From the IMG/VR virus record IMGVR_UViG_3300010163_000008, positions 1 through 64,000 of that record: a stretch of DNA of 64,000 bases; one strand, given 5' to 3'. The notes beneath the pieces are model-generated. The model saw nothing but the letters and a program-made list of their open reading frames with translations, was not told the origin of the DNA and searched no databases. This DNA is from a virus (lineage: Duplodnaviria; Heunggongvirae; Uroviricota; Caudoviricetes). Every line of letters begins with the position of its first letter. Position 1 is the stretch's first letter. The translations under genes were made by a program, and so were the position numbers. This document shows, in pieces, positions 7,400 through 63,996 of the stretch.

Positions 7400-8013
7400 C
7401 GGGGAAGGCTAAGTTATCTAAATAATATGCTAATCCCGTGGGAAGGGGTCTAATAAGGCTCAACCTGTATCGACTAGTTACGTTGAGTAACGTAGGGCTA
7501 TTATTGACACATAGCTCGAAAAGGTAATAGTATCATTAAAGATGATATTAAGAGATAGTCAGTACCATGAGAAATCATAGGTTTCCCTTACAACATAGGG
7601 GTGTTAACGGTATCAAAGAATGTATTGACTTCATGGGAATGTCAATACTCAATAAGGACGGGCAGGACTTCTGTAAGAAGGTTTTACAGGCAATTAATAA
7701 AAATAACGACAAAGCGGATGCCAAATATAAGTACGCACACAACCTAGAGCAAACGCCTAGACAGTTGGGCAATAGTGACATAAACCTATAAATCACTATT
7801 CAAAATCCCTTTTAATTGACTTGGAGTGCCAGAGATGGCTAACAGGGCGCAAGTTTAAATACAGCGTGAACGACTAAATAAAGGGACTTCATTAGGTAAA
7901 TAATATGAAGGTGCGATAGTCTGACCTCGTGATATAATCTAAAAATGAAACACGAGAGGGAATGTCGAAGAACTTCCCCGCCAATATAATATGTTGGTCA
8001 TATAAGTAACAGA
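7392..8013 (+). ncRNA. group I self-splicing intron interrupting nrdD (boundaries approximate: 5' splice after U7391; 3' end at G7996 or G8014)
   Basis: NrdD coding sequence resumes in frame at about 8000; in-frame TAA right after exon 1 (7397-7399); group I core-like elements gaacgactaaa (about 7876) and gatagtctgacc (about 7916) resembling the conserved R/S (P7) sequences; T4 nrdD is known to carry a group I intron. Confidence 0.55.
7567..7791 (+). CDS. small ORF inside the nrdD intron (74 aa), no recognisable homing-endonuclease motif
   Basis: ORF track only. Confidence 0.15.
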   Translation: MRNHRFPLQHRGVNGIKECIDFMGMSILNKDGQDFCKKVLQAINKNNDKADAKYKYAHNLEQTPRQLGNSDINL

Positions 8014-8490
8014 GTGAGCGAAAACAGTGCGATTAAACTTGCAACTAAAGATAAGTTGCTTAAATATCAGGACACTTATGAACTATATTCAAATCAATTC
8101 ATACCACTTATTACAGAAGCAGACCTATTAGACCGTCTACGTCTACAAGGAATGTTTGATTCTGAGTTTAGTGGTGGTAGTATTCTACACTGCAACGTAG
8201 ATTCACCTGTAGAAGATTATCACGATATCATGAGAATGATTGAGTGTGCAGTTAAGATGGGTGTTGTGTATCACGCGATTAACTATAATCTACAAAAGTG
8301 TGAAGATGGTCATATGAGTGTAGGTAGGCATGAGGTATGTCCTGTATGCGGTAAGCCAATCACTGATAACTATATCAGGGTTGTGGGCTTTATCGTGAAT
8401 GTGAAGAACTTTCACAAGGTACGTAGGGACGTAGATTATGCTAACAGACAGTTCTATGAAGGTTCTGACGTAGGTAAACTTAAACAGTAA
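8014..8490 (+). CDS. nrdD: NrdD exon 2: C-terminal glycyl-radical domain and zinc ribbon
   Basis: HEVCPVCG zinc ribbon and IRVVGFIVN glycyl radical motif (RVxGY/F); frame is open from 7990 so exon may start at 7997. Confidence 0.75.
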   Translation: MSENSAIKLATKDKLLKYQDTYELYSNQFIPLITEADLLDRLRLQGMFDSEFSGGSILHCNVDSPVEDYHDIMRMIECAVKMGVVYHAINYNLQKCEDGHMSVGRHEVCPVCGKPITDNYIRVVGFIVNVKNFHKVRRDVDYANRQFYEGSDVGKLKQ

Positions 8491-11334: not shown

Positions 11335-11732
11335 AGATTGGCTTTCTTACATATCCGCATTGTCCAGAGTGTGGATGTGGTAATTGGAAAAATGAGCAAT
11401 GCGAATTTGCTCACATGTGCTACAGAGAAACGATAATCGACAAAAATGCGTATATTATGCTGGAAGGTATACCGTCTGAATGGGTTGAGCCTGATAAGCT
11501 CAAATATCCACCAGAACCAATGCAGATTATCAATCTTGACTCTGACTTTTTAAAAGAAGTGCATTCGATTTTTCAAGACTGTGGATATGGCGAGATAGCT
11601 TGTAAAGAGCTTGGGTTCGTACTTGCCAATTACTTTATGGACGCATTGGTAGAAGCTCATAAGAAGATGAGTCTTGATACCTTTACGCATATAGATAGCA
11701 TCGAAGCTACTCAAACATCACAAAGGAGATAA
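11331..11732 (+). CDS. hypothetical protein with N-terminal Cys pairs
   Basis: CPECGCGNW ... C. Confidence 0.25.
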   Translation: MKIGFLTYPHCPECGCGNWKNEQCEFAHMCYRETIIDKNAYIMLEGIPSEWVEPDKLKYPPEPMQIINLDSDFLKEVHSIFQDCGYGEIACKELGFVLANYFMDALVEAHKKMSLDTFTHIDSIEATQTSQRR

Positions 11733-12049: not shown

Positions 12050-12507
12050 ATATATTAGGTACACAGTATACACTGAACAATCATGCGTTTGAAATATATA
12101 TAGCTGGTTGTTCTGGTAAACCACATTGTTATGGTTGTCATAATCCTGAGTCATGGGACTTTAGTGCGGGGCATGTAGATAATGAGTTTTTCCGAATAGC
12201 CATTGCTGAGAAAATAGAAGCCTTTGACCCTATGATTGATAACATCATGATTTTTGGTGGCGAACCTAATGACCAAAAACTTGATGAGTTGGAAGACTTC
12301 TTGAAGTATTTGAAACGATTCAACAAGCCTATTTGGTTATTCACACGCTATGGCATTGAAGAAGTGCCAGCATTTGAAAAAACATTATGTGACTATATTA
12401 AATGCGGTGCGTATTTAGCTAATATGGTTACTGATGATAACATACAATATGGCATTAGACTAGCCACATCGAACCAGAAAATCTACAAGAAGGGAATTGA
12501 TTACTAA
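12031..12507 (+). CDS. nrdG: anaerobic ribonucleotide reductase activating protein NrdG (radical SAM)
   Basis: IAGCSGKPHCYGCHNPESW Cys triad in NrdG-like spacing, about 155 aa, in same early region as nrdD. Confidence 0.55.
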   Translation: MEGKILNILGTQYTLNNHAFEIYIAGCSGKPHCYGCHNPESWDFSAGHVDNEFFRIAIAEKIEAFDPMIDNIMIFGGEPNDQKLDELEDFLKYLKRFNKPIWLFTRYGIEEVPAFEKTLCDYIKCGAYLANMVTDDNIQYGIRLATSNQKIYKKGIDY

Positions 12508-44019: not shown

Positions 44020-44670
44020 ATGACACAAACGGAAGTTCGTCAGAAGAAGATTTATGGTTATTGCCGTGTATCTACAAAGGAACAAAACCTCGACCGACAA
44101 CTTATCGCAATGAAAGCAGAAAACATCCCTGAAAGTAATATCTACTGCGACAAACAATCTGGTAAAGACTTTGAACGTAAGAACTTTAAAAAGTTAGTAC
44201 GAAAGTTAAAATCAGGCGACACCTTAGTAATTATGTCAATAGACCGATTAGGAAGAGACTATGATGCTATAGGACAAATGTGGCGGCATTTAGTACTTGA
44301 AAAGAATGTATGTATCAAAGTACTTGATATGCCTATACTTACTACTACAGATAATAGCCTTATTAATCGTCTGTTGTCGGATATCATTTTGCAACTGCTT
44401 GCTTATGTTGCTCAAACCGAAAGAGAGAACTTACTTAAAAGACAAGCTCAAGGCATTGAAGCTGCTCGTGCAAGAGGTGTACAATTCGGTAGACCTAAGA
44501 TTGAAGTCTGTGATGATTTTAAGCAAATCGTCATTGATTACAAAATGCGCAAATATACATTAAAAGAAGCGGTTGCGAAATCCGGTATGTCCCAAAGAAC
44601 ATTTTATAGACGTTCTAATGAACTTTGGGCTGAGATAGGTTCAGAATATGAATCGTGTGAGGGGGTTTAA
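44020..44670 (+). CDS. small serine recombinase of the resolvase/invertase (Hin/Gin/Cin/Min) family
   Basis: YGYCRVSTKEQNLDRQ catalytic-Ser motif, DTLVIMSIDRLGRD, C-terminal HTH (GMSQRTFYRR); 216 aa. Confidence 0.8.
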   Translation: MTQTEVRQKKIYGYCRVSTKEQNLDRQLIAMKAENIPESNIYCDKQSGKDFERKNFKKLVRKLKSGDTLVIMSIDRLGRDYDAIGQMWRHLVLEKNVCIKVLDMPILTTTDNSLINRLLSDIILQLLAYVAQTERENLLKRQAQGIEAARARGVQFGRPKIEVCDDFKQIVIDYKMRKYTLKEAVAKSGMSQRTFYRRSNELWAEIGSEYESCEGV

Positions 44671-44720: not shown

Positions 44721-45707
44721 TCAAGGATGGTTAATCATAGCTAAATTCTCTTTAGCATTATAATCTACGGTGTAACCTGCTTGAAAAAAATCACGTAGTC
44801 TTATATAATTCTCACCTTGATACATAATTGTCGTAACTGTATAATCTTTATTATCTATAGATATAATCTTGGTAGTTAAAGTAAACTCTTTATCATTGGT
44901 TGTTGAAGGTACATCTACCTTGGGCGCTACTTCCGTTGTAACTCTTTCGATATACTGTAGGCTCACCCAACCTTTACCAGTATAGCCCCAACCGTTGTCT
45001 TCCTTAGTTATATGAACCTTTTCCCCATTGTTATAAACTAAGACTATACTACCACTCACAGGATATTCACGACAATTAAGTGCGCTAGCTGTAACCTTAC
45101 CTTCGTAGTCTATTGCTTTTGTTGTAGATTGTACTACGTTTGTATCTCCTACTAAATCCCATCTTGGTCTACCATAACCCTGTATGCTCGGATAAGTAAG
45201 AGCATATGATTTATCTCTTACAGCACCACCATTAGCCACAACGCCTGCCGCACTAGAAGTGTTACCTTCTATCGTATATACTCTACCACCCTCAACCTTA
45301 ACTACAAGCCCTGTATGTGTCATATTAGACTGACTTGTACCAAAGAATATCTGGTCGCCCGGTTGTGGATTACCTGTGTAGAACCGTCCCATACTCTTAT
45401 AATATCCTGCTGAATATGTACAACCTGCACCAGCAGACTCTTTTGGTTGCCCCGTCAGCTTCATTGCTACCTCAAGACCAAAGGTCTTATAGAAACACCA
45501 GTCAACAAACACATCACACCAGGCCAGTCCTTGCTTTGCACCATTGTAAAGACTTGTTCTATCTAAATCTCTAGCATACTTAGTATAATTATTATAGCCT
45601 GCATTAGCCGTTTTATCGTCTAGTTGACTATTCGTTCTCTTTTCAAGATAACCGATTTCATTCTTAGCTGTTTGGATTAATTTTTCTATTGCTGTCATTT
45701 GTATCAC
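44721..45707 (-). CDS. endolysin: CHAP/NlpC-P60 peptidase + SH3-like + wall-binding module shared with 34438 lysin
   Basis: Cys (GLAWCDVFVDW) and His (NMTHTGLVV) CHAP residues; C-terminal KEFTLTTKIISIDNKDYTVTTIMYQGENYIRLRDF identical in pattern to the amidase lysin C-terminus. Confidence 0.7.
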   Translation of the reverse strand: MIQMTAIEKLIQTAKNEIGYLEKRTNSQLDDKTANAGYNNYTKYARDLDRTSLYNGAKQGLAWCDVFVDWCFYKTFGLEVAMKLTGQPKESAGAGCTYSAGYYKSMGRFYTGNPQPGDQIFFGTSQSNMTHTGLVVKVEGGRVYTIEGNTSSAAGVVANGGAVRDKSYALTYPSIQGYGRPRWDLVGDTNVVQSTTKAIDYEGKVTASALNCREYPVSGSIVLVYNNGEKVHITKEDNGWGYTGKGWVSLQYIERVTTEVAPKVDVPSTTNDKEFTLTTKIISIDNKDYTVTTIMYQGENYIRLRDFFQAGYTVDYNAKENLAMINHP

Positions 45708-45789
45708 TCCTTTCTTATGTAGATAATATATTTTGCCGTACTCTAATATTCAGAGTGTTGTGCAAGAGACTGTATTTTCTATTGCAACG

Positions 45790-46296
45790 CCCAAAATATT
45801 ACAATTTGGGAAGCTAATTATACATAATAATACTCTATATTTTGGTAATTCTAGTAATGTTCCAACCAAAGTATCTTCTGATACAGTACCCTCTCACACT
45901 CATTCAGCAAATAACATAACCAGTGGTGTACTTCCAATAGAAAGAGGTGGAACAGGCTATTCTTCTTTATCCTCATTGAAAAGCGCACTTGGTATTACAA
46001 ACAGTTGTACAATAGTAACAGGTAGCTTCACAACTAATTCTAGTTATTCAATGGGCACTAACATAACATTGGGATTTCAACCTAAGTTATTGATTACGAT
46101 AGCAGATAAGTACGCAGATACTGTTGATAATAGAAATATTGCATTAATTGATAATGGACAAGCCATCATAGGATTCTATTGGCTGAATAATAGTGGTAGT
46201 TTAAATTTAGCTACTACAAAACTTACTTCAACAGGAATAGGTAAATATAGTAATCTACTTCCAAGTACTACTTATTATTATGTAGCATTTAGTTAA
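45790..46296 (+). other. silent tail-fibre C-terminal cassette 1 (junction block + variable tip)
   Basis: begins cccaaaatattacaatttggg...ctatattttggtaattc (encodes LQFGKLIIHNNTLYFGNSSNVP), no start/RBS, ends ...YYYVAFS*. Confidence 0.65.
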
Positions 46297-46377
46297 GATA
46301 TTATATAATAAATTGCACTTACAATACCTCATAACTAGTTTGTCGCATTGCAATGTTTTGGCTCATAAATTGCAACG

Positions 46378-47037
46378 CCCAAAATATTACAATCAGGTAA
46401 GATAATTATATGGAATAATACCCTATACTTTGGTAATTCTAGCAATGTTCCTACTAAAGTTTCGTCTGACGCAGTACCTTCTCATACTCATTCAGCTAGC
46501 GATATAACTAGCGGAACGCTCCCTATCACTAGAGGTGGTACGGGTAATACTACTGGATTAGCCGCAAGTGCTACAAAGTTAGCAACTGCTCGAACTATAC
46601 GAGTAAACTTAGGTTCTACAAGTAGTGTTAGCTTTGATGGCACAGCGAATATTACCCCCGGTATAACTGGCACACTCTCTGCTTCATATGGGGGGACAGG
46701 TTGTACTTCTTTGTCTTCATTAAAGAGTGCGTTAGGAATTACAGATGGTTGTACAATTACTACAGGCACTTTTACTACTACTTCTGGGGGTAGTAGTGGT
46801 AAAGTAACTCTAGGTTTTCGACCTAAGCTTCTTATTGCTGTATGTAATCAAGATGGCAACAATCAAAACGGTAAGATTTTTTTATCTATTGATATTGGTA
46901 ATACTATTGTAGGTATAAGATGGGTAAACGATTATGCTGGTGCATCTTGCGGGTCATCAGTACTTACTTCTACAGGGTTTAATAGTATAAATTATTTGTG
47001 GACTAATGAAACCTATTCTTACCTTGTATTAAGTTAA
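46378..47037 (+). other. silent tail-fibre cassette 2
   Basis: same junction block (QSGKIIIWNNTLYFGNSSNVP), open frame to 47037, ends ...YLVLS*. Confidence 0.65.
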
Positions 47038-47112
47038 TAGTATCAGATTGCATTCACAACCTTACATAATTAATTTGCCGCATTGCAACGTCTTGGTCTG
47101 TAGATTGTATCG

Positions 47113-47757
47113 CCCAAAATATTACAATTCGGAAAGGTTATTGTGTGGAATAACCAACTTTATTTTGGCAATTCAAGTAACATACCCACTAAAGTATCTT
47201 CTGATACAGTGCCTGCACATTATCACTCAGCAAGTGATATAACCAGTGGTATATTATCTACTAGTCGGGGTGGGACAGGCAATGCTAATGGATTAGCTAC
47301 TAGTGCCACCAAATTGGCGACTGCTAGGAATATAAGGGTTAATTTGGATAGTACTAGCTATGGAAGCTTCGATGGGACTGCGGACGTAGCTCCCGGAATT
47401 ACTGGAACGTTATCTGCTAGTCATGGCGGTACAGGTTATACATCACTATCTTCACTTAAAAGTGCTTTAGGTATCTCAAGTAGTGGACAATGGACATATG
47501 GAACATTTACATGGTCAAAATCAACTGCCAAGACAGTCACTTTAGGCTATAGACCGGGATTAGTATTCTTAGTAATGGATAGAATATATCCTTGGGTTAT
47601 CATCTCTAATTATGGACAATGCAGTTATTTTTACACGTTATCTAGTAGCACACCAAATATAGGAGGAAGTGATATAACTAGCACAGGATTCACCTTAGAT
47701 GCCAATAGTAGTCTAATCTCAACGACATATGTAGACTATGTAGCCTTTGAAAGTTAA
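47113..47757 (+). other. silent tail-fibre cassette 3
   Basis: junction block (FGKVIVWNNQLYFGNSSNIP), ends ...YVAFES*. Confidence 0.65.
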
Positions 47758-47840
47758 TCACAATTTAAGAATATTTGCACTCATTTTATCCCGTATGATT
47801 AGTTTGTCACATTGCAATATCATAACTCACAAAAATCATA

Positions 47841-48594
47841 ACCTAAAATATTACAATTCGGTAAGTTAATTATTTACAACAACCAACTATATTTTGGCAA
47901 TAGTAGCAACCAACCAGTGACCGTCTCACCTACAAGCATATCAGCAAGCAACATTACTTCCGGTACATTTTCTACCGACAGATTGCCTACTGTCCCTATT
48001 GCAAAAGGCGGGACTGGTGCTACTGTTGCGTCTACGGCATTAAGCAATCTCGGTGGATTTTCTAGCGCCGGAGGTACTATTTCTGGTGCTGTAAATATCT
48101 CAGGCAAACTTGATGTACAAAATAATGCTATGCACATTGGGTCAGGAAGTAATGGGGCAAAGTTGAACTTTGGCGACGGTGATTATGTTTATTTATATGA
48201 AAGTACCGACGACCATCTATATATAAAAGCTGATAAAGGATTACACTTACAGTGTGGTTCAAATAGCAGTTATGATATTACTGTTCAACATGGAAGTGAC
48301 CCTGCTATATCACTACTTGGTGGTGGAGGCAGTAGTAAAATGGCTACTGGTAGTTTTTATTATAGTGGTTCAACTCAATCTGTAAATGTTGGGTTTCAAC
48401 CAGTATTAGTTATATTTACAGGCGCTGGGCAGTCTCTCTTAATAGGCATATTAAACAATGACGAAATACGAGCATGTAAAAATGGCAGTTGGCAAACCGC
48501 GTCAGTAGATACATATACAAGTAGTACTGGATTTAAAATAACATCAGGGGCTGTATCTGGCACTCAAACTATAAAGTATGCTGCTTTTGGCTAA
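47841..48594 (+). other. silent tail-fibre cassette 4
   Basis: junction block (FGKLIIYNNQLYFGNSSNQP), ends ...KYAAFG*. Confidence 0.65.
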
Positions 48595-48630
48595 TAGAAA
48601 TTGCATTCACGGTTGCCCTTCTTGCGTATA

Positions 48631-49298
48631 CCAATATCTTACAACATGGCAAAGTAATTATATGGAACAATAACCTGTATTTTGGCAACAGTAGCAATAT
48701 CCCACAATCTATTTCTGTAGATTTATCTTCTTATGCTACTACTAGCTATGTAAGTAATAATTATGCCGCTAAGTCTCATACACATTCTGATTATGCCACA
48801 AAGAACAATCCCACTTTGACAGGAACTATACACTTAAATAGCACTGATATAAGGTTAGGTGCAAATAGTAGTAGTTCAAATGTTAAAGTCAAATTCGGAG
48901 ATGGTGAATATATCTATATAAATGAAGATGTAGACGACCATCTTGTATTTTATTCTAAAAAAGGTATAGACTTTACCAGTCAAAGTAACTCTGGTACTTT
49001 TACCTTCAATGGTAATGCTATAGGCGGCGCTTCTGTACAAGTAGTAACTGGATATGGACGAGCCGCGCAGAGCGGAGGTATTAATTTAGGATTCAAACCT
49101 AAAGTAGTTGTTCTTGCAACTGCTAATAACAATGAAACAAATGTTATTGGTGGCATATTATCTCAAGGATATTCTGTGTTATTCGGAATGGATAATAGGG
49201 TTAGCCAAGGTACTAGTAATGTTAATTCTAGTGGATTTACTGTTTATGGTAGGGCTAGTGATTCAAATAGTTATTATTATTATGTAGCATTCTCATAA
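48631..49298 (+). other. silent tail-fibre cassette 5
   Basis: junction block cttacaacatggcaaagtaattatatggaacaa (LQHGKVIIWNNNLYFGNSSNIP), ends ...YYYVAFS*. Confidence 0.65.
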
Positions 49299-49351
49299 TT
49301 GAGCAATCACTTCTGACAAGTTGCAACATTGCAAGATTGTAAAGTCCTTTC

Positions 49352-50019
49352 CCATAATCTTACAACATGGCAAACTCATAATATGGAATAACACTCTATA
49401 TTTTGGCAATTCCTCTAATATCCCAACACAAGTTACACAAGATTTATCCACTTATGCTACCACTACATGGGTTAATAATAATTTTGCGGCTACAAGTCAT
49501 ACTCATTCTACATATGCGCCTAAAGATAGCCCTACACTAACAGGTAATATTCATCTAAATAGTGCATCAATACGATTAGGCGCAAATAGTTCTAATTCTT
49601 TATGTAAAATAAATATAGGAGATGGGGATTATATTCATTTTTACGAATACGAAGATGATAAATTAGAAATTAAAGGTAGCACAATTAATATGGCTACTTC
49701 TAATTTTTTAATTAATGGTACAGCTTTAGGTAGCGACAAGCAAGCAGTCAGTGGAACTATAACTAGTACAGGTTCAACCATGACAGTTAATGTAGGCTTT
49801 CAACCAACGTTGGCATTCGTTGTATGCCGTGGTGGAGCTTCGGGAAGATTGGGCTGGATAATTTATGAATCAGGTAGTACATATTGTACCTATTTAAAGA
49901 CTTCCTTGTCTCAAGGTCTTTCCAGTACGTCTGCGTCAGGTCGTCCGTCTAATGGTTTTTATATACCACAAAATTCTTTTGATGATGGTTGGCCATTGTA
50001 TTATACAGCTTTTAAATAA
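49352..50019 (+). other. silent tail-fibre cassette 6
   Basis: junction block (LQHGKLIIWNNTLYFGNSSNIP), ends ...YYTAFK*. Confidence 0.65.
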
Positions 50020-50067
50020 ACAATCTTAATTTATCAAGTTGCAATATTATAGCGTATAAAACCCATC

Positions 50068-50737
50068 TCCCAAAATATTACAACATGGCAAAATCATAAT
50101 TTGGAATAATACGCTGTACTTTGGCAATTCCAGTAATCAACCTAAAGCTATATCTGTAGATTTATCCAGCTATGCAACAACAACATGGGTAAATAATAAT
50201 TTTGCTACCACTAGTCACACTCATTCAACCTACGCGCCTATAAACAATCCTACACTAACAGGCACTATCCATCTTAATAGCGCATCTATACGATTAGGAG
50301 CTAATAGTTCTAACTCTGCTTGTAAAGTTAATATAGGCGACGGCGATTATATTCATTTATATGAGTATGAGGATGATAAGCTAGAGATTAAGGGAAGTAC
50401 TATTAATATGGCTACTTCTAATTTTTTGGTTAATGGGTCTTCATTAAGTAGCGGTGGCAAGATAGTTACTGGAACTGCTTCTGGTTCTACAATAAGAAGC
50501 CCCGGTATTAATGTAGGTTTTCAACCAACAATTGTTATTTTAATGGCTAAAACAGAAGCTACAAATAATAACACATTTTGTATGGTCTTTAATGATTACA
50601 CTGTCTTAATGTTTAGTAACTCAACCCCTGTACCTTCATTTACAAACACTGGGACAAATTTTATAACAAGCACTGGATTTAAAGTATCTAGCTGGTTACA
50701 GTCTAGCTATAATTGGAGTTATGTTGCTTTCGGTTAA
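50068..50737 (+). other. silent tail-fibre cassette 7
   Basis: junction block (LQHGKIIIWNNTLYFGNSSNQP), ends ...SYVAFG*. Confidence 0.65.
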
Positions 50738-50778
50738 TATGAGGTTGTGAACACACGATTAATCTCATCATTCATTAT

Positions 50779-51932
50779 CCAAAGTCTTACCTTTTGGCAA
50801 GTTGCTCACCTATCAGAACGCACTGTATATGGGCAACTCATCTAATCTTCCCCAAGCTGTTGGTGGAGGTGGTAAAAAGTATGCTAGTGTTGTGATAGGA
50901 ACTTCCACAGCTGGATGGAAAAAGGAAGATTGTGATTACCTTTGTGATGGAACAAACGACCAAGAAGAGTTTAATACTGCCATATCAACCTTTGATAAAA
51001 CGATTGGTGGCTCTATATTTGTACTGCCGGGGACTTATAATATAACTGCTAGGATAACTAACAGACCGGGTAATGAATGGGATAATGCACCTGTAGAAAT
51101 ATATGGGACTCCTCAGACTATATTAAAACGTTATTTTAATGACGTTAACCAGTATCAAGACAATGGACTTATAAGATTAACTACTGCTAGCATAACCTCA
51201 TATTGTAGTGTCCATGACTTATGTATAGATGGTAATAACGGCACTTACAATAGTGCCTATAATAGAGCCATAAACATATCATATAATGGGTGGGTATATA
51301 ATACTTATATATTTAATACTGCTAAGGGAATAAATGCAGGACAATATGGAGCAGTTTATGGTAATGTATTGGAAGATGTTACACAAGAAGGCATACAAGC
51401 TGGTCCATTAACCAGCGTTATAGGGAATACCTTTAATGCTAATGGCGCGAATGCATACGGTGCTGACAGTTTTGGCATTTATAGTCCAAGATTCGCAGTC
51501 GTAATAGGAAATACAATCAGTGCAGAATATAAAACAGGCATTCTTGTTGAGGATGCCGCGGTATGCATTGGTAATCATGTAGACAGGTTTGGTCAATATG
51601 GTATTAAAATTACTATTGCCAACAGTAGTCTTGTAGCAGGTAATATTGTAGATACTTGTGGCGAAACTGATAAAGAAGCTAATACATATCAGTGTTATAT
51701 AGATGGAACAAATACGACTTATAAAAACGATGGAAATCTAATTATTGGGAATGTTTTTAATCAAAGCAAAAGATATAATAGCGATACGGTTTCATATCCA
51801 AATAATGCATATTCTATTTATATAACATCTGGAGCTACTAACAATCTCATTGCGTGCAACAACATTTATGGTAAAAACTATACAAACCAGGGTGGCTCCA
51901 CTAATACCTTTTATAATAATAAATATAACTAA
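50779..51932 (+). other. silent tail-fibre cassette 8, long, beta-helix (pectate-lyase-like) depolymerase-type tip
   Basis: divergent junction (LPFGKLLTYQNALYMGNSSNLP), then repetitive G-N-x-h-x-x beta-helix-like coils (IGNTFNANGANAYGADSFGIYSPRFAVVIGNTISAEY ... IGNHVDRFGQYGIKITIANSSLVAGNIVD). Confidence 0.6.
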
Positions 51933-51944
51933 GGAGGTATAATA

Positions 51945-52316
51945 ATGCAATATCTTTTTAGAATGTATGGTAATGAAATACAGGTTATTCGATATATGAC
52001 AACCCATACAGAGATTGAATATATATATAATGAAGAAACACATATGCGTGAACCTCATGAATATGAAGCAAAATATTATTTTACCACATTAGAACAAGCT
52101 CAAAAGGACGGCGAGCCTATAAAACTCGACTATGAACCTTTTGAATGGCTCGATGGTATTTTAACAAAAGATACTGAAAATACCTATGCAGAAGCTATAA
52201 AAATTTATGAAATGGGTGAAGAAGCGTATAAAAAATCACTTTTACAAGAAAATGCTCAAACAAATGAGCAGTTGTATTCTGACGTATCTCAATGTATATT
52301 GAGTATGATTAGCTAA
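51945..52316 (+). CDS. putative tail-fibre assembly chaperone for cassette 8
   Basis: small acidic ORF immediately 3' of cassette 8 with aggagg RBS; arrangement mirrors Mu Sv-U. Confidence 0.35.
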   Translation: MQYLFRMYGNEIQVIRYMTTHTEIEYIYNEETHMREPHEYEAKYYFTTLEQAQKDGEPIKLDYEPFEWLDGILTKDTENTYAEAIKIYEMGEEAYKKSLLQENAQTNEQLYSDVSQCILSMIS

Positions 52317-52608
52317 TTTGAGATAATATGAGATTGTCTGTAACCGTTGGTTCGTAAACAAATGGTTCGGGAGGTGGAATAAGGTCAGGACGTGGAGTTA
52401 CTTTAGTGATGGTAACTCCATCTTCTGCAAATTCTACATCAAGATAAGGAGCATTATCTATAATATCACGTTCAAATTCTGGTGGTACTGGAACCCATTC
52501 TGTGGTAGTACCATCTTCTAGCGTTTCATTTTCATTCCAAACTGTTGGATATACACGATGGGATTGACTTTCAGCCCATTTATGATTCTTTTCAAAAATT
52601 GCACTCAT
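52309..52608 (-). CDS. putative tail-fibre assembly chaperone for cassette 9
   Basis: small ORF 3' of the - strand cassette, aaggaggg RBS before ATG at 52608; its stop overlaps the + strand chaperone stop in palindrome attagctaat. Confidence 0.3.
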   Translation of the reverse strand: MSAIFEKNHKWAESQSHRVYPTVWNENETLEDGTTTEWVPVPPEFERDIIDNAPYLDVEFAEDGVTITKVTPRPDLIPPPEPFVYEPTVTDNLILSQIS

Positions 52609-52669
52609 AATTATGCAAACCCTCCTTAAATTTATCATTATAATAATTATAAAAATACATGGCAAACTA

Positions 52670-53199
52670 TTAAGGTCTAAATGCTATATAATAATAAGAT
52701 TGTCCAGTTTTTACCAACTGTAACCCATTAAGATTAAATCCGCTAGAAGTAATCTTCTTAGATGAAGTCCCCACAGGGTCGCCAATTCCAACTGTTGCGC
52801 CGCGTGTAAGTATTAATGAGTTTCTACATGGCGAATCGTCCATCAAAGAAATAGCACCAATTAATACTAACACTGGTTGAAATCCTAATGATACATTAGC
52901 TTGACCACTGAATGTCCCAGTAACATATATATAATCAGATATATTACTAGAAGTTAGATATTCACTATGAGTATGATTAATAGACGCATAATTACTATGT
53001 GTATGAGAAGCAGTAGCGTATACTCCATTATGATTATGCGTAGTTAAAGCATAATTATTCAACTTAGTCGTCAAGGCAGAAGTCGTTACATAATTGCTTA
53101 AATCTACATTTGGGGCAACAGTAGTTGGTGTATTGCTGGAATTTCCGAAGTAGAGTTGATTATTGTAAATAATTAACTTGCCATACTGTAAAATATTAG
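52670..53199 (-). other. silent tail-fibre cassette 9 (- orientation)
   Basis: junction block on - strand (LQYGKLIIYNNQLYFGNSSNTP) begins directly after the stop of the expressed fibre gene; ends ...YYYIAFRP*. Confidence 0.6.
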
Positions 53200-53229
53200 T
53201 AAATGCAAGTCTGCAAGTATATTGCTTAT

Positions 53230-54129
53230 TTATTCGAATGCGGCGTACACCACAGAAATAGTTCCTCCACCTGTATAGCAACCTGATGCTAAATAGAAAC
53301 CATTGGTTCCTGTAGCAGCACTATACGAAGCAATATTACCGCCCATCATTAATGCTTCAGTACCATTTTTTGTTATGGTATTAATAGCGGCATTACCAGA
53401 TGAGTACGATTGAGCAATAACAAATGTTGGTGTGAAATCTAAACTGACCCATCTATTAGACGACAATTTGCTTAAGCTCAATGACCCTGTAGTAAAGTTT
53501 TTACTGCTACCGCCTATAGCTTTACCATTAATGGTGACATCACCGCTACTCTTTAGATTTATGCCACCAGAGGCATAGATTTCAAGATGGTCGTCAGAAC
53601 TTTCAGTAAAATGTACTCTATCACCATCACCTATCTTAATAACAGAGAAGGATGATGTAGATGTAGTACCGAGTCTAATATCAGCATTGTTTAGATGTAC
53701 TGCTCCATTGACCGTCAGAGCACCTGTAATCGTTCCTCCGCTGGTGGGTAGTGCCCCTATATTACTACAGGCACTAGACGCGCTTGTAGCCCCTGTACCG
53801 CCTCTAGCAAGGGATAATGTACCGCTGGTGATATCAGAAGCGGAATGAGTATGAGACGGAACAGTAGTAGGGGTGACAGTTGTAGGCACATTTGAAGAAT
53901 TGCCAAAATATAATTGATTGTTCCATATTATGAGTTTGCCATGTTGTAAGGTTGTTGGCAAGGCTGCTGCTGTGCAAGTTTCGGGTAGCTTGGCTTGCAA
54001 AATCGTTTGCAAATTGTTCATTTTTCCGTTGAGGTCGCTTGCAACTTGGGCGCTTGATTCGCCATTCACAATGTCTAATTTATAAGTGCCGCCACTAGTA
54101 ATATCAATGCTAGTTGTAAAAGCTGCCAT
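53230..54129 (-). CDS. expressed tail fibre gene: constant N-terminal part + currently fused variable tip
   Basis: ATG 54127-54129 with RBS; constant region then TLQHGKLIIWNNQLYFGNSSNVP junction (about 53900-53962) identical in pattern to all cassettes; ends ...VVYAAFE*. Confidence 0.7.
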   Translation of the reverse strand: MAAFTTSIDITSGGTYKLDIVNGESSAQVASDLNGKMNNLQTILQAKLPETCTAAALPTTLQHGKLIIWNNQLYFGNSSNVPTTVTPTTVPSHTHSASDITSGTLSLARGGTGATSASSACSNIGALPTSGGTITGALTVNGAVHLNNADIRLGTTSTSSFSVIKIGDGDRVHFTESSDDHLEIYASGGINLKSSGDVTINGKAIGGSSKNFTTGSLSLSKLSSNRWVSLDFTPTFVIAQSYSSGNAAINTITKNGTEALMMGGNIASYSAATGTNGFYLASGCYTGGGTISVVYAAFE

Positions 54130-55058: not shown

Positions 55059-56276
55059 TTACGTACTGCTTGTAGAACCTTCACGAAGTTCATAGTATGG
55101 TAAATCACTAACATTACTTGCCGTAATCGACATGGTACTTGAAGCGTCTAATGGTAAAGTAATAGATTGTATGATAAATCTCTCTCTCGTATAACCAAAA
55201 TATTCATCTTCAATAGTTATGATTTTATTTACATCTAAATGAGGCAGTAATGAACACTCAAACGTAATCGCAGATTGTAATATAGACTTCTGATTAAGCA
55301 AATATTCTGCATAGTCTTTAGCATTTTCTTCTGAACCTAGATTTGAAGATTCTTCATAATATGCCTTTCTTCCTATATTCTCTATTGATGTAGATGAAAT
55401 AGGATTATGATTTTCTGCTGTATAGCTATAGATATCAGTATCATTTGAATTACTGCTACTCACTGTAACACAATTAATTACTTCTGCTGGGGATAATGTA
55501 AGTACAGGATTTATATATTCAGCAGTCTTGTCTGTAAAATCCCACAATGAATCTTGTGTAGAATAAGATAAGTCTAAAGTACCATTGTCGTATCGTAAAT
55601 GACCATCAGTATCATAATAAGTGTCCGCGCCCATAATGTTTCCTACTTCTATAAAAATTTCAGAAGCATAAGTGCTAGGAGATTTATCAATCTCATATGG
55701 ACATTTCCATGAGAGTAATTCATTATCTACAATAGGTGTAGACCTATCCATTATATTAGCATTTCCCATATCAGCCCATAATGTTTGTTCAATAATCTCC
55801 ACTATAGATGTGCCTTCTGGTATGACATGGGTATAACTATATTGGTTGTACCCTGTCTCTGCACCTAAAAATCCGTATTTGTCTACACCATTAAGCGTTA
55901 CTGTCTTTTGTGTTCTATCTATACTAGGGTCAAGCATACAAAATACACCTTGTGAAAACCAATATACATCATCGGTATATATATCCTTTAACCCTACAAA
56001 TAACTTAAATCTCCTATTTATCCATATTAAACCATCTATCTTAGGAATGAATATACCATCATTATCTATAAGAGTAAAAGTACAAGTGCGTCTAACTCCT
56101 TGCTGATAGTTGATAGATATCGAACCAGCATTATCAGCAGTAATATAGTCGGTAATATCTAATATTACATTTTCATAATGGTCTAATAATTCTATACGAT
56201 ACATAGGATAAATCTCAGGTCTTGACGCAATTTCTCTATATTTAGAGTCTGCTACATTCATGTATTCAACAGCCAA
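55059..56276 (-). CDS. phage tail/baseplate structural protein
   Basis: position downstream of tape measure and large tail protein. Confidence 0.3.
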   Translation of the reverse strand: MAVEYMNVADSKYREIASRPEIYPMYRIELLDHYENVILDITDYITADNAGSISINYQQGVRRTCTFTLIDNDGIFIPKIDGLIWINRRFKLFVGLKDIYTDDVYWFSQGVFCMLDPSIDRTQKTVTLNGVDKYGFLGAETGYNQYSYTHVIPEGTSIVEIIEQTLWADMGNANIMDRSTPIVDNELLSWKCPYEIDKSPSTYASEIFIEVGNIMGADTYYDTDGHLRYDNGTLDLSYSTQDSLWDFTDKTAEYINPVLTLSPAEVINCVTVSSSNSNDTDIYSYTAENHNPISSTSIENIGRKAYYEESSNLGSEENAKDYAEYLLNQKSILQSAITFECSLLPHLDVNKIITIEDEYFGYTRERFIIQSITLPLDASSTMSITASNVSDLPYYELREGSTSST

Positions 56277-58971: not shown

Positions 58972-61900
58972 CTACCCCTTTCTATTAAGTGATACAGTCT
59001 TAAGTCTACGTACAAAATCATTAGGTTGTTGTACGGATGGTAGATTAACAGTAGATATGTTAATAACAGTACCTTCGTCATGAACCTTGTTATCCATACC
59101 TCTAATTACGCCATTCATTTTATTATAAAGTGCATTTGTATTTTCTGCTAAAGCATAGTCTGGATTATACGTGTGAATCATACTCCACAATTTCTTTGCG
59201 TCTTCTGCATTAAATACGACCTCTGAATGACGGTCGGAACCGTGAACCTCCGCGTCACCTGTATAATCTACAACACCGCCATTAGCATATTTAGATTTAG
59301 GAACGCTGTAGGTTGAACCGTCAGAACGTGTTATAATTGTATAACCACTTGAGCCATATGTTTGATTACGATTAGCAGTTAAACTACTACTTGAGCTACT
59401 AGTTGTCTTACTAGAACTGCTACTTGAGCTACTGGTCTTTTTACTAGAACTACCACTAAGAAACGACCCTATAGCACCGACTAAGCCACCTACTACTGTA
59501 CCAATAGCACTACCACCAGTTACAGCAGAGCCTACTTTAGCTCCTGTAGATATAGCAGAACTACTACTAGATTTCTTAGAGCTACTAGAGCTACTACTAG
59601 TCTTTGAGCTAGATGAGCTAGATGAAGAAGATGAACTGGTTCTACCATAGTACCAGTCACTTGTGTCTGAACCGGGAGGGGCATAACTAGCCCTATTATC
59701 CCATTTTTCACTTTGATAAGTCCCGTCACTATTTACACCTGTAATTACATATGAACCGCCATGGGTTGTAACTATATCTCCTTTATGTAATCCGGGTTGC
59801 GCATGACCATTTGATTGAACTTGTACTACTCTATGTGGGCCAGTATATTTATCAGAACTATTAGAATTATTGTTGGAAGATGTAGAAGTTGCAGGTTTAC
59901 CATAAGTACCAGTATTATAATTATAATTCTTACCAGTCTCATAGTCACTTTTTGCCATTTCTTGTGCCTTCTTGACCATTTCAACGGCTCTGTTAGCTTG
60001 TGCTTCTACATTGTCTAATGCACGAGTAAGAGCTTCTTCCCAAGCATCAATATTAGTTAATTCAATTTCTTTTATAGACTCCGCTGTAGATACATAACTA
60101 TCTCTAAGCTGTCCTAGATATCCTGTTGCATTTTGTATGGTAAGGTTGAGATTATCTTCCATGTCTTTATGGATGATAGCTTGTACCTCTTTAGCATATG
60201 TAGTATCAGCGGCTAGTTGCCCATAAGCCTTTTTGCCTTCTGTTACACCTAGCCATGCAGCAGCATTCATTCTATTAATATGGTCTTCATATTGTTTAGA
60301 TACTTGACTTAATTTTTGAATATAGTCATTATATGATTCTATTTTTTTATTGTTAGCTTCAATTTCTTTTTTCCAAGCATCAATTTGCTGTTGTTTGTAG
60401 AAGTCCTCAAGCGCTTTCTTAGCATCTTCATATGCTTCCTTCGAATCATCAAGTGCGTCATTAGCATCTTCTATAGCTTCTTTATCAGCTTCCCATACCC
60501 AACCACGTTCGGCATAAAAGACACGTTTAACTTTATTCTTTTTAGTTTTCTCTAGTGCTTCTTTCTTTTTCTCTAAATCTAAAGTTGCTTCTTCAAGTTT
60601 CTTCTTTAATTCTTGCTCCTTGAGCATTTCATCTTCTTTGTCCATTTCTTCTTCAAGCAAATCTATCTTTTCTTGTATTAAATCATTTTGTTCTTCTAAA
60701 TCATCAATCATGTCTTGCGTAAAGCTCTGTAATCCTGCAATGATGCTTTCTTGATGAGTTTGAATTGCCTGTTGCTCTTCAAGAGCGGCTTGTTTCATTT
60801 TCTCTGCTTCTTGTCGTATAGTATTGGCTATACTCCTTGCTTGGTCTTCGAGTTGTTGAATCCTATCTTTATTAGCATCTGCGTTTTCTGCTGCTAATCT
60901 ATCAATCTCGTACATAATACTAATATATTGTGTTTTATATGCTGTTAGTATCTTTCTCTCTGTCTCTAATCTCTCTTTATTTGTTGCATTAACGCGCTTC
61001 ACATAATCATCAAGAGTTTCGCCTAATCCACCTTGCTCAAGCTCAATCCTGTCATATTTGTCATTAAGCTCATCTATCGAACGAGAGATTTCATTCATTT
61101 GATTGTCAAAAGCCTGATTATATAAATCTTCTATTTGGTCGGCATAACCCCAAATCTCTTCTGCCAACTCCATCATTTCATCACTAGTTTCAGTAAACCC
61201 TTGTTTACGTAAATATTGTGCTTTAGCCTCAGCTAGATTTTGCATAGCCATTAACTCAAGTATTTGAGTGCCTTCTGATTTTCCTTCACGTTCTGCTTCA
61301 GTTATTGTATGTTGGTGACGCTTTAATTGGTTTTGATACATTTTCTCATAGAGAGCTTCCATTGCTTCTAAGTTACTAACCTGCTCGTCCATAAGACTTT
61401 GTATTTGCTCACTTTCTTCTGTATATCCACGTCTTTTCAGTGCCATTATACGATTGTTTACTTCTTCTTGCATTTCAGCGTACCTTTGTAATTGTGCTTG
61501 TTCCGTACCTGACTTAGTTGCAAGCATATCTATTTCATGCTGTCTGTCAGTCATGAAGTTGTCATGAATAGAAGCCTCTATATCGCGTTGTTGTTCTTCA
61601 TAATCCCACCAGTCATTTTGTAACTGACGAATAGCTTCACTTTCATCAGAATATCCTTCAGCACGTAATTCTTCGGCACGTTGATGAGCTTTTTGTTTCA
61701 TTTCTTCTAATATCGCCATTTGACGATATTCTGTATTTTCATGATGAGATATTTGGTCAATTTCATGCTGTTTATTATCTATATAGAAATCATATAATTC
61801 TTCTTTTATATCTAAGATATCAGCTTGGTCGTCCCACCATTTATCAGAATCTTCCATGGATTTTTCAGTATCTTTGCCGTTGTTCCCTGCTCTCTGTTTT

Positions 61901-63996
61901 TCTGCATCAATATGTAATAATCCTTGATGCTCTTTTAATTTTGCTATCTTTTGGGCGGCTACTGATTCCATATTACTGCCTTTTCGAGCTTGAACATCAA
62001 GTTTAGACATTAATACTTCTACAGACATTCCAGCTTCATCAGCGGCTTTTTGTACTTGTTTTAACGCTTGAGCTACTAAACCAAACTCGCCAGACATTTC
62101 CATAGCCCTAGCAGTCTTATCTGCTTGTGAACCTATATCTACAAGAATATTCTGAATTTTCTTGCCGTCTACTTCTAAGCCTTGACGGTCTAGGTCGAGC
62201 AATACATCAGCAGTCCAACCTTCACCTGCATTACTGATAAGTTGATTTATGTATTTATTTACTGTGGATTTAGAAAGTACTTCTGCTCCATTGTCAGTTT
62301 GTAGAATAGCCGTATAAGATATTTCTACATCATTATACATATCAGAAGCACCTAGGGCTTGAGATGTAGTACCTTTTATAGCATTTAAATCTTTACCCCA
62401 TGATAAGAGTGCGTCTTTGTATTGTGCTATAGTTTCGTCTGTCCATTCCAATACTTTTGCTGAATTAAGATTTACGTTTCCATAGATAGTTTGATTTAAA
62501 TTCGCCCCTAGATTAGTAGCTTCATCTACAAGTTTAGTGTAATTATTGTAAATATCTTTATATTTATTATATAGTTCAGTGCCTGTTCTATCTACTCTTT
62601 CTTTCTGTTGGTCAAGAAGATTGATTTGATGCTCCATACGGGTTTCGTAATCATCCATCATTTCTTCTTCTATATCTTCAATATCTTTTTGTAATTTCCA
62701 CCACTCTTCTGCGGCGGCACGACTATCATCCGTTTCCGCTCCGTCAGCCCTTGCACGAGATTCTTCTGCTATTTTATGTTGAAGAGCTTGTTGTTTCTTG
62801 ATTATCCCTATTCTTTCTTCATAACTAGCATTATGATATTCAGCCATGGTAAGTTCATGTTCAAGTAAATCTACTTGTTTCTCAAGAGCTTCCTTCTGCA
62901 TATCAAAGACTTTCTCTTGCATCTCCCAGTCTTTATCTCGATATTGACCTATATCTTTATAATATTGTTTCCATATTTCTTCATATTTTTTTGCATATTC
63001 TTCTTGTGTAATTTCTTCCATTGCAAGTCGATGTTCTAAGACTTTTAATGCTTCCTCTGCGGCTGGATTGGTCGTTTCTTCCTTTGTAGAACTACTATCA
63101 GTCTTATTAGATGTAGAGCTATTAGACGAACGATTGCTACTTGAATTACTTCCACTGCTACTACGACTGCTTGAACTTCCACTACTCTTTGAGCTACTAG
63201 AACTAGAGCTTTTGCCCCCAGAAGAACTAGAAGAGTCGCTTCCAGTTTGTTGAGCATAATAATCGGTTGTTTTAATCTTAGTATGTATCGGTTTTAAACC
63301 ATTACTATGTTGTTCAATTTTACCTTTTGTAATCATATCTGTAACATTATGAGGAACAATAGTATCTCCGGGTTTAACATGAATTAATTCAGGGCCATTC
63401 ATGCCAACCATACTTTGTTGACCGTCTTTATCTATCTTAAGCTCTGGCCCTTCTTCGCCTACCATAGCGTTGATGTACTCTGACGCTCTCATTGGTGTGG
63501 TCATACCGTCTGATTTACGTTTACCTACAGCATAACCGGGAATAAAACCTGTTGCTCCACCACCTTTAGTGACTGTCACTGAACCACTTGATACAGCGGC
63601 GGGCTTATTCTTTTCCACATAGCTAACGGTAATAGTAATATTTTTGCTTTGTAGAGTGTCAATCGTAGAACGTAAGTTTACAACTTTACCATTAGAATCA
63701 TCAGCGGCAGTACCAATATTAGATAAGGATAATTGACAAGCGGCAGTACTACAACCGTTAATAGTATTTATAGCTTCTTGAATACTATTAACAACAGTCG
63801 TTTTTGTAGTTTCTGCTGTTGTTCCTACTGCTTTTAAGTTAGCTTGTAATCCATCGGTATTAAATGCTACTTCTTCCATAGATATCTGCATACCAGATAC
63901 AGAGTTTTCTATTTGAGTTTTTAATTCTGCACTAAAGTCTTTAACTTGAACATTATCTCCAAATTCAAAAGTGATGCTTTCATCACCATTGTTCAT
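58972..63996 (-). CDS. tail tape-measure protein (>=1674 aa; frame open beyond window end, probably 5'-truncated)
   Basis: very long, coiled-coil rich, Ser-rich low-complexity tracts, followed by tail tip genes. Confidence 0.6.
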   Translation of the reverse strand: MNNGDESITFEFGDNVQVKDFSAELKTQIENSVSGMQISMEEVAFNTDGLQANLKAVGTTAETTKTTVVNSIQEAINTINGCSTAACQLSLSNIGTAADDSNGKVVNLRSTIDTLQSKNITITVSYVEKNKPAAVSSGSVTVTKGGGATGFIPGYAVGKRKSDGMTTPMRASEYINAMVGEEGPELKIDKDGQQSMVGMNGPELIHVKPGDTIVPHNVTDMITKGKIEQHSNGLKPIHTKIKTTDYYAQQTGSDSSSSSGGKSSSSSSSKSSGSSSSRSSSGSNSSSNRSSNSSTSNKTDSSSTKEETTNPAAEEALKVLEHRLAMEEITQEEYAKKYEEIWKQYYKDIGQYRDKDWEMQEKVFDMQKEALEKQVDLLEHELTMAEYHNASYEERIGIIKKQQALQHKIAEESRARADGAETDDSRAAAEEWWKLQKDIEDIEEEMMDDYETRMEHQINLLDQQKERVDRTGTELYNKYKDIYNNYTKLVDEATNLGANLNQTIYGNVNLNSAKVLEWTDETIAQYKDALLSWGKDLNAIKGTTSQALGASDMYNDVEISYTAILQTDNGAEVLSKSTVNKYINQLISNAGEGWTADVLLDLDRQGLEVDGKKIQNILVDIGSQADKTARAMEMSGEFGLVAQALKQVQKAADEAGMSVEVLMSKLDVQARKGSNMESVAAQKIAKLKEHQGLLHIDAEKQRAGNNGKDTEKSMEDSDKWWDDQADILDIKEELYDFYIDNKQHEIDQISHHENTEYRQMAILEEMKQKAHQRAEELRAEGYSDESEAIRQLQNDWWDYEEQQRDIEASIHDNFMTDRQHEIDMLATKSGTEQAQLQRYAEMQEEVNNRIMALKRRGYTEESEQIQSLMDEQVSNLEAMEALYEKMYQNQLKRHQHTITEAEREGKSEGTQILELMAMQNLAEAKAQYLRKQGFTETSDEMMELAEEIWGYADQIEDLYNQAFDNQMNEISRSIDELNDKYDRIELEQGGLGETLDDYVKRVNATNKERLETERKILTAYKTQYISIMYEIDRLAAENADANKDRIQQLEDQARSIANTIRQEAEKMKQAALEEQQAIQTHQESIIAGLQSFTQDMIDDLEEQNDLIQEKIDLLEEEMDKEDEMLKEQELKKKLEEATLDLEKKKEALEKTKKNKVKRVFYAERGWVWEADKEAIEDANDALDDSKEAYEDAKKALEDFYKQQQIDAWKKEIEANNKKIESYNDYIQKLSQVSKQYEDHINRMNAAAWLGVTEGKKAYGQLAADTTYAKEVQAIIHKDMEDNLNLTIQNATGYLGQLRDSYVSTAESIKEIELTNIDAWEEALTRALDNVEAQANRAVEMVKKAQEMAKSDYETGKNYNYNTGTYGKPATSTSSNNNSNSSDKYTGPHRVVQVQSNGHAQPGLHKGDIVTTHGGSYVITGVNSDGTYQSEKWDNRASYAPPGSDTSDWYYGRTSSSSSSSSSSSKTSSSSSSSKKSSSSSAISTGAKVGSAVTGGSAIGTVVGGLVGAIGSFLSGSSSKKTSSSSSSSSKTTSSSSSSLTANRNQTYGSSGYTIITRSDGSTYSVPKSKYANGGVVDYTGDAEVHGSDRHSEVVFNAEDAKKLWSMIHTYNPDYALAENTNALYNKMNGVIRGMDNKVHDEGTVINISTVNLPSVQQPNDFVRRLKTVSLNRKG

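Follow-up and report, generated by a model that had tools for sequence, protein, structure and literature searches.

The window analysed here is a 64,000-nt stretch of DNA (positions 1 to 64,000 of IMG/VR record IMGVR_UViG_3300010163_000008) from an uncultivated tailed phage, and it holds an array of tail-fibre cassettes lying between a gene for a small serine recombinase and the phage tail genes. Gene content was read from the listing of open reading frames (ORFs) and from Pfam matches. The recombinase gene (44020-44670, plus strand) encodes a protein of 216 aa with a catalytic domain and a C-terminal helix-turn-helix (HTH), the presumed invertase, and is followed by a CHAP/SH3 endolysin gene (44721-45707, minus strand). 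The array itself is bounded by the endolysin and the tail genes and comprises one complete fibre gene, nine start-less C-terminal cassettes and two small genes (51945-52316 on the plus strand and 52309-52665 on the minus strand). Only the expressed tail-fibre gene (53230-54129, minus strand) has a start codon and the constant N-terminus, a part of about 60 codons (53950-54129, minus strand) that is joined at Leu-Gln to the current variable part. Among the silent cassettes, C1 to C8 lie on the plus strand and C9 on the minus strand. The initial annotation had claimed an invertase-driven cassette system at this place, and the anatomy, with its serine recombinase, expressed fibre and start-less cassettes, bears this out. 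In our view this is probably a shufflon-type system of multiple inversions, which alters the receptor-binding end of the phage tail fibre, with the crossover in a conserved TTAC.

Ten copies of a 73-nt junction block align without gaps in the window. Block positions are counted from the first C of CCAAAATA, which puts TTAC at 9-12. Position 1 falls at 45791, 46379, 47114, 47843, 48631, 49352, 50070 and 50779 on the plus strand and at 53199 and 53957 on the minus strand. The sites are found inside the tail-fibre gene, at the border between the constant N-terminus and the alternative C-termini, and in both orientations. When both strands of the entire window were scanned with a position weight matrix (PWM) of the site, the ten sites scored 25-32 bits and everything else at most 16.2 bits, the 99.99th percentile being 11.2 bits. 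The recombination site of the expressed gene, hereafter the expression site, is a 26-bp dyad at 53936-53961 on the minus strand, TTGCCAACAACC-TT-ACAACATGGCAA, with TTAC at 53946-53949 and the proposed crossover TT at 53948-53949. The first four silent sites, all on the plus strand, belong to C1 (45787-45812; TTAC 45799-45802; body 45799-46296; 30.6 bits), C2 (46375-46400; TTAC 46387-46390; body 46387-47037; 27.7 bits), C3 (47110-47135; TTAC 47122-47125; body 47122-47757; 30.3 bits) and C4 (47839-47864; TTAC 47851-47854; body 47851-48594; 28.2 bits). They are followed on the same strand by C5 (48627-48652; TTAC 48639-48642; body 48639-49298; 30.2 bits), C6 (49348-49373; TTAC 49360-49363; body 49360-50019; 29.5 bits), C7 (50066-50091; TTAC 50078-50081; body 50078-50737; 32.1 bits) and the long cassette C8 (50775-50800; TTAC 50787-50790, then C, giving Leu-Pro; body 50787-51932; 25.7 bits). 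The site of C9 (53178-53203; TTAC 53188-53191; body 52670-53191; 25.1 bits) is on the minus strand, in direct orientation to the expressed copy. The expectation of a site of about 26 bp within the junction block, just 5' of the conserved LYFGNSSN coding stretch, thus holds, and the strings quoted in its favour were all found: cccaaaatattacaatttggg at 45790-45810, ccataatcttacaacatgg at 49352-49370, ccaaagtcttaccttttgg at 50779-50797 and ttgccaacaaccttacaacatggcaa as the reverse complement of 53936-53961.

Relatives were found by homology searches with the expressed fibre and then with the expression-site fibre of one of the relatives, L029, together with contig look-ups. The relative loci are L028, L029 (to which L030 is identical), L031, L033, L102 and L103, and the more distant L032, L104 and L105. 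All of them share the design of a constant N-terminus, a junction block and many cassettes, and the recombinase stands at the far end of the array wherever the contig extends far enough. A profile of the window blocks identified 48 full sites in the first five loci, and L104 and L105 add 13 each.

Conservation across these sites is of two kinds. Positions 9-12 are totally conserved, including the third position of a Leu codon (position 11); TTAC stands at all ten window sites and at 47 of the 48 sites over five loci, well above anything that chance would give. The conserved Leu is written TTA in 48 of 48 sites, compared with 44% of the other Leu codons of these cassettes, and at a second conserved Leu six different codons occur. 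Position 12 remains C in 47 of 48 sites although the residue differs (Gln, Pro or Ser). All 13 sites of L105 read TTGC, with Leu as TTG, a concerted genome-wide change at a synonymous position. The sole dinucleotide found in every site examined is TT, present in all 74 silent and all six expression sites. From position 18 onward there is a strict three-base periodicity with free third positions, typical of protein constraint alone. It had been proposed that third codon positions more conserved than in the rest of the cassettes would mark a DNA site, and this comparison was positive at TTA (position 11) and not from position 18 on.

In L029 a cassette head that is otherwise intact (L029:11515-11538) has TTAA GTT (Leu-Ser) in place of TTAC, which may mean either that the site has been inactivated or that position 12 falls outside the crossover overlap. 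In L104 the gene immediately upstream of the expressed fibre (L104:8668-9945), which is not shuffled, carries the same PYGKLVIYDGKLYIGN motif with ATAC instead of TTAC; the peptide motif thus serves more generally as a structural element, and it is the TTAC form alone that marks sites of recombination.

The same data bear on the alternative that there is no site-specific crossover here, the block being kept as a structural fibre junction while cassettes are swapped by homologous recombination or gene conversion over its 73 nt. The purely protein-type conservation past position 18 and the occurrence of PYGKLVIYDGKLYIGN in the non-shuffled neighbouring gene of L104 are what such an explanation would lead one to expect, and C-terminal modules also swap between strains at a second motif, SLSSLKSALGI. 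It does not account for a synonymous Leu position that is invariant within each genome and has switched in concert in L105, nor for the retention of position 12 under a changing amino acid. A dedicated serine recombinase conserved beside each complete array, start-less cassettes in both orientations and the arrangement of L031 described below also speak against it, and we regard it as improbable.

Junctions in the relatives locate the exchange more closely. The informative strain pairs were L028/L029 and L031/L102 only; L031, L033, L029 and the window share only 85-90% identity, a divergence too great for isomers to be mapped at the nucleotide level. The L028 site at 11615 is a chimera whose left side corresponds to the L029 site at 10782 (identical over at least 135 nt) and whose right side is identical to the L029 site at 12333, with the switch point within CAAAAnTTTACAA, at positions 2-14. 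L031 has its constant N-terminus joined to the cassette type that in L102 and L028 adjoins the endolysin, with the cassettes after it in direct order; this arrangement is the product predicted for inversion between the expression site and C1. The similarity of L031 and L102 begins at TTAC, and the preceding eight bases differ. Contig L103, which comes from another sample and shares 98% identity with L029, has its first base one nucleotide 5' of TTAC. Contigs break at these sites, which is a caution for assemblers. An exhaustive HMMER search of a library of 1.8e9 proteins gave 17 representative expressed isoforms in which about 60 N-terminal residues are shared and divergence follows L(P/Q/V/H). 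In-frame stops precede TTA by three codons in C4 (TAA), by six codons in C2, C3 and C7 and by eight codons in C8, and in L032 an in-frame TAA occupies block positions 3-5 in six of 15 sites; the spacers are therefore unusable for productive fusions. Taken with the other junction data, the L028/L029 chimera and the L031/L102 isomer bracket the exchange to TTACAA, and the crossover site is most likely a short one centred on the invariant TTAC.

No isomers from the same strain as the window turned up when the recombinase, the product of the tail gene beside it and the expressed fibre (P0001) were looked up as exact proteins. A megablast of the locus against phage GenBank entries, a search of IMG/VR with the fibre and a word-indexed protein search with an 80-aa N-terminal query each gave no match. 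The constant-region 17-mer CTACCCGAAACTTGCAC was absent from IMG/VR viral contigs, and in the metagenome and genome contigs scanned it had only chance matches in unrelated taxa, none of them with the block.

From the anatomy, the conservation pattern and the junctions of the relatives we infer that the recombinase encoded at 44020-44670 acts on the site of the expressed gene and on its equivalent at the head of each silent cassette, exchanging DNA between the two. The exchange would take place within TTAC, most likely at TT, the first two bases of the Leu codon in the conserved Leu-Gln/Pro, and the resulting inversion would put the constant 60-codon N-terminus in frame with a new C-terminal cassette. 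Serine recombinases require an identical 2-bp overlap in the partner sites, and position 13 is A or C within genomes; the overlap would therefore lie within TTAC. That TT (block positions 9-10) is this overlap we hold to be roughly an even call, with TA and AC as the alternatives.

The shape of the site differs between the expressed and the silent copies, the former being predicted to form a canonical 12-2-12 dyad and the latter a core with a right arm. A 26-bp dyad about TT, TTGCCA-N6-TT-N6-TGGCAA, is present at the expression site of six out of six genomes, with the outer 6+6 bases perfectly complementary; in L105 it reads TTGCCAGATAGT-TT-GCCATCTGGCAA. Arm matches about TT number 6, 6, 6, 6, 8 and 10 of 12 in these expression sites, which are homologous rather than independent and whose left arm also encodes Leu-Pro. 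Mean arm matches in the 74 silent sites are 3.1-4.4, the chance level (expression versus silent, Mann-Whitney p = 9e-5). Of the features of a 26-bp site with imperfect 12-bp arms and an identical 2-bp core, the identical TT is seen at all sites and the arm symmetry at the expression sites, the symmetry of the silent sites being that of chance. The silent sites retain the core, the right arm, which travels with the cassette, and an A-rich tract at positions 3-7; their left arm is A/T-rich and non-symmetric, and comparison of left arms with a right-arm PWM gave no convincing left half-site in the silent copies at the three candidate centres tried. The initial annotation had described short dyads centred on TTAC(A/C) in each block: the TTAC core is indeed present in ten of ten and the expressed copy is a true 26-bp dyad, but the dyads of the silent copies are at chance.

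Several points weigh against a site-specific crossover at TT. Dyad symmetry in the silent sites is no better than chance, the silent copies of the window matching at 3-7 of 12 positions about TT where about 3.4 are expected. The right arm also codes for the conserved x-Gly-Lys, and its conservation is not assignable to DNA recognition. The case for TT against TA and AC depends on how symmetric the expression site is and on two variants that retain TT while differing at position 11 or 12, a TTAA site in L029 and a single TTGC site in L104. The switch in the L028/L029 chimera lies where the two blocks are identical for longest, as it would under homologous recombination, and recombination over short homology would give the same junction; recombination as such has been deduced from comparisons of sequences. 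Lastly, the silent copies are more symmetric about a point 6 bp farther right, the centre of a 14-bp palindrome, TTRCC-N4-GGYAA, than they are over the 26-bp site.

This palindrome (for example L105:15258-15271; block positions 9-22 in the window) overlaps the core, and the 26-bp model leaves the constraint on the right arm unexplained. A crossover at its centre (block positions 15-16 of TTRCM-N4-GGYAA), with the two 5-bp arms as recombinase half-sites, would be an explanation for the strongest symmetry axis of the silent sites, which scores 0.55 against 0.45. The palindrome is perfect in L105 (TTGCC-N4-GGCAA, 13 of 13); in L104 and L032 it is near-perfect, and all 26 sites of L104 and L105 have GGC as the Gly codon. 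Its central four nucleotides, however, differ between expression and silent sites (ATCT versus TGAT or TAAC in L105; CA, TT, TC and TA in the window), and a 2-bp overlap there would therefore mismatch between partners. At positions 15-17 the L028 chimera already has the sequence of the right-hand parent. The dimer geometry of small serine recombinases is known from the complexes of resolvase, Hin and Gin, and half-sites 9 bp apart do not fit it. We consider a crossover at this centre very unlikely.

A further candidate of the initial annotation, the inverted pair CCAAAATA...TATTTTGG about 40 nt apart, fares worse. Both octamers occur in C1 and C3, and it is in these two of the ten blocks only that the exact pair is present, so that its being the invertase site, or a structural element of one, strikes us as scarcely credible. 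The expressed copy is without CCAAAATA, TATTTTGG varies synonymously or by residue (TAC, TTC, TAT, ATG), and the residues between the two octamers are cassette-specific in expressed proteins. As a site element TATTTTGG was rejected, being the codons for Tyr-Phe-Gly and varying synonymously.

Returning to a crossover within TTAC, the asymmetry of the sites may tentatively be read as one 'master' full dyad at the expression locus and many half-sites consisting of a TT(A/G)C core and a cassette-linked right arm, with weak inverted TTGC partners or dead-end 'off' cassettes as possible additions; we would put this forward as a speculation with a minor share of the probability. If it were true, a Sin-like recombinase would pair a full site with a half-site productively and two half-sites only rarely. 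Nearly all rearrangements would then pass through the expressed gene, and deletions that lose cassettes would be limited, with no Fis or enhancer filter.

The spacers in front of the cassettes carry the ATTGCAA(Y) motif, which the initial annotation had reported in every inter-cassette spacer and offered as a candidate crossover site. Exact ATTGCAAY copies precede C1, C2, C3, C4 and C7, and C6 has GTTGCAAC and ATTGCAAG; the spacers before C5, C8 and C9, three of the nine, have no copy. Over the whole window ATTGCAAY is not enriched (11 found, 9.1 expected). In the spacers TTGCAA is enriched, with eight copies in 511 nt against 0.28 expected (Poisson 7e-10), these copies being non-independent because the spacers are homologous duplicates. 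The motif lies within inverted pseudo-sites, all in spacers and on the opposite strand, here the minus strand. They were found in the spacer of C2 (46338-46361, CCAAAACATTGCAATGCGACAAAC, containing ATTGCAAT; PWM 16.2 bits, the best non-site of the window), in that of C3 (47073-47096, CCAAGACGTTGCAATGCGGCAAAT, containing ATTGCAAC; 15.1 bits, and a minus-strand nhmmer match at E = 0.07), in that of C7 (50029-50052, CTATAATATTGCAACTTGATAAAT; 10.9 bits) and upstream of C1 (45731-45754, TCTGAATATTAGAGTACGGCAAAA; 12.5 bits), the equivalent of the last scoring 16.6 bits in L028 and L029. The distance from position 1 of the pseudo-site to that of the real site is 18 nt in three of the four and 37 nt upstream of C1. 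The pseudo-site CCAAAACATTGCAATGCGACAAAC resembles the site sequence CCAAAATATTACAATCAGGTAAGA.

Could these elements be functional binding sites of the recombinase, either as alternative crossovers (inverting a single cassette, or giving an 'LQCGKLIM*' stub) or as accessory sites like site II of the Sin and Tn3 res sites? They are the top non-site PWM matches in the 64 kb, they keep TT, their orientation is always opposite and their spacing largely constant, they have equivalents in L028, L029, L031, L033 and L102, and the recombinase is most similar to Sin, a user of an accessory site. A res-type arrangement would have accessory subsites at every partner site, but the pseudo-sites stand before some cassettes only and are missing before C5, C8 and C9, at the expression site, and in L032, L104 and L105, where cassettes abut. 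Their conservation is 0.4-1 bit per column, compared with 2 bits for TTAC, and their cores have drifted to TTGC, TTAG or CTGC. Stops cut the motif off from the block in C2, C3, C4 and C7, and the motif is not supported as a crossover site. When spacer and site were folded together, the hairpin was no stabler than that of shuffled sequence (z -1.1 to +0.2), and a hairpin or terminator role is unsupported. A recombinase-binding role is therefore, in our estimation, unlikely. The ATTGCAA(Y) motif is, as far as its sequence indicates, the drifted core (TTAC to TTGC) of decayed, inverted copies of the junction site, that is, a relic.

The recombinase matches PF00239 over residues 11-154 (E = 1e-27), with a weak HTH match at residues 167-197, and with its 216 aa it has the catalytic domain, the C-terminal HTH and the size (about 190-220 aa) of a small serine recombinase. 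Compared with PDB sequences by phmmer, it scores 98 bits with Sin/Bin3, 82 with gamma-delta resolvase, 78 with Tn3 resolvase and 55 with Gin, and on these scores it groups with the resolvases rather than with Hin and Gin; the NCBIfam model of the Mpi family gives 43 bits, the cut-off being 272. Orthologues lie beside cassette arrays in L028 and L029 (91% identity), in L032 (82%, with the recognition helix unchanged) and in L105, and the synteny of recombinase and array extends over four independent loci. No tyrosine recombinase of the kind that acts in R64 (Rci/sfx) or Rin is present, the sole recombinase at the locus being the PF00239 protein, and likewise in L029, L032 and L105. Further relatives of the recombinase in IMG/VR (L001-L027) are about 50% identical, and in those examined, a repeat search included, there were no fibre blocks and no shufflon-like inverted repeats.

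Inversion of the tail-fibre tip is a classic host-range hedge of phages; a host-range switch of this kind is already known, and current views are not overturned. Well-studied tail-fibre inversion systems have two to six sites and Fis-dependent enzymes of the Hin/Gin type, Min having six. The present array has ten sites, and those of the relatives 13-15. In function and layout it nevertheless seems closest to Min of p15B and to Gin (Mu), Cin (P1) and Pin: a small serine recombinase of a phage adjoins a tail-fibre gene, and a constant N-terminus would receive alternative C-termini through sites within the gene. Unlike these systems, it belongs to an uncultivated low-G+C phage whose host is likewise uncultivated and low in G+C; the phage has its own replication genes and, at about 117 kb, is a large one and not a small prophage. 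Its recombinase is nearer to Sin and gamma-delta resolvase than to Gin, and its silent sites are not dyads. Min, another phage tail-fibre inversion system, has multiple crossover sites and yields many isomers (PMC6109161). The hix site measures 26 bp (PMC3798978), and the expression site described here has the same 12-2-12, 26-bp layout as hix and gix.

Other multi-cassette systems offer partial parallels. In the R64/IncI shufflon the sfx sites have a conserved arm and core with the other arm non-conserved, the recombinase Rci is a tyrosine recombinase and the target is the PilV adhesin. The present array likewise has many asymmetric silent sites with one conserved arm and a core; it is not an R64-type shufflon, because its enzyme is a serine recombinase. 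Rin, a shufflon found in Bifidobacterium prophages, relies on a tyrosine recombinase with an asymmetric 11-bp repeat (PMC6109161); in Phocaeicola phages the BV01-like tail-fibre shufflon comprises three cassettes with a 10-bp motif (PMC13596623). The layout here resembles both in its tandem, small, start-less receptor-binding cassettes, each preceded by a short repeat, with a constant N-terminal gene on one side and the recombinase on the other, but differs in the serine recombinase and in a TTAC core that lies within a conserved coding block. Sin, beta and the Tn3 resolvases are the closest relatives of the recombinase with solved structures, and pseudo-sites beside the crossover recall their accessory subsites; here, in contrast, the pseudo-sites are poorly conserved and missing in some relatives, and the output would be inversion of coding cassettes, not cointegrate resolution. 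What the locus adds is a family of large uncultivated low-G+C phages with arrays of 10-15 cassettes and a resolvase-like serine recombinase, in which the likely crossover is narrowed to six bases. The site model, a full dyad at the expression site and silent half-sites, supplies concrete substrates for biochemistry. For the annotation of metagenomes it suggests a rule: TT(A/G)C followed by N5-GGN-AAR, heading start-less fibre cassettes.

Within the array, some cassettes show a second level of structure. A second conserved module border, GGTGYTSLSSLKSALGI, is common to C1-C3 (45946-46041, 46690-46785 and about 47427-47470), and directly past it cassette homology stops between strains (L028, L029, L102); the C-terminal tip of about 100 aa is therefore apparently swapped as a separate module. 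Each array holds one much longer cassette. In the window this is C8, of 376 aa, with its own small gene (51945-52316) downstream, and that gene or tip is possibly a cognate chaperone or a depolymerase-type tip; the version in L029 (13109-14431) has 440 aa and a Peptidase_G2 domain. There is no reverse transcriptase among the window ORFs examined and the variation consists of discrete cassettes, so the array does not have the makings of a diversity-generating retroelement. In L105 a reverse-transcriptase gene (L105:12121-13251, PF00078 RVT_1, 376 aa) lies within the cassette region, on the same contig as the 13 TTGC sites and a resolvase; it could belong to a diversity-generating retroelement, a retron or a group II intron.

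Elsewhere in the window are genes for NrdD, a primase and DnaE. The NrdD gene (4499-7399) is interrupted by an intein, and the L028 endolysin (L028:7234-9219) carries a Hint/intein insertion that brings it to 661 aa, its L029 counterpart (7509-8486) having 325 aa. DnaE, the alpha subunit of DNA polymerase III, is split over two ORFs (25489-26937 and 27226-29367), the first with the PHP domain and the start of the NTPase domain and the second with the remainder. The tail genes, the tape-measure gene among them, occupy the minus strand from 54213 onward, and the putative tape-measure protein (58972-63996, 1674 aa) has several long poly-Ser and Ser-Lys low-complexity tracts. In L029 an IS605-type OrfB/TnpB (Cas12f-like) gene (L029:18399-19529) is inserted next to a baseplate-like gene, and the L029 homologue of the window gene at 55059-56276 looks shortened at its N-terminus.

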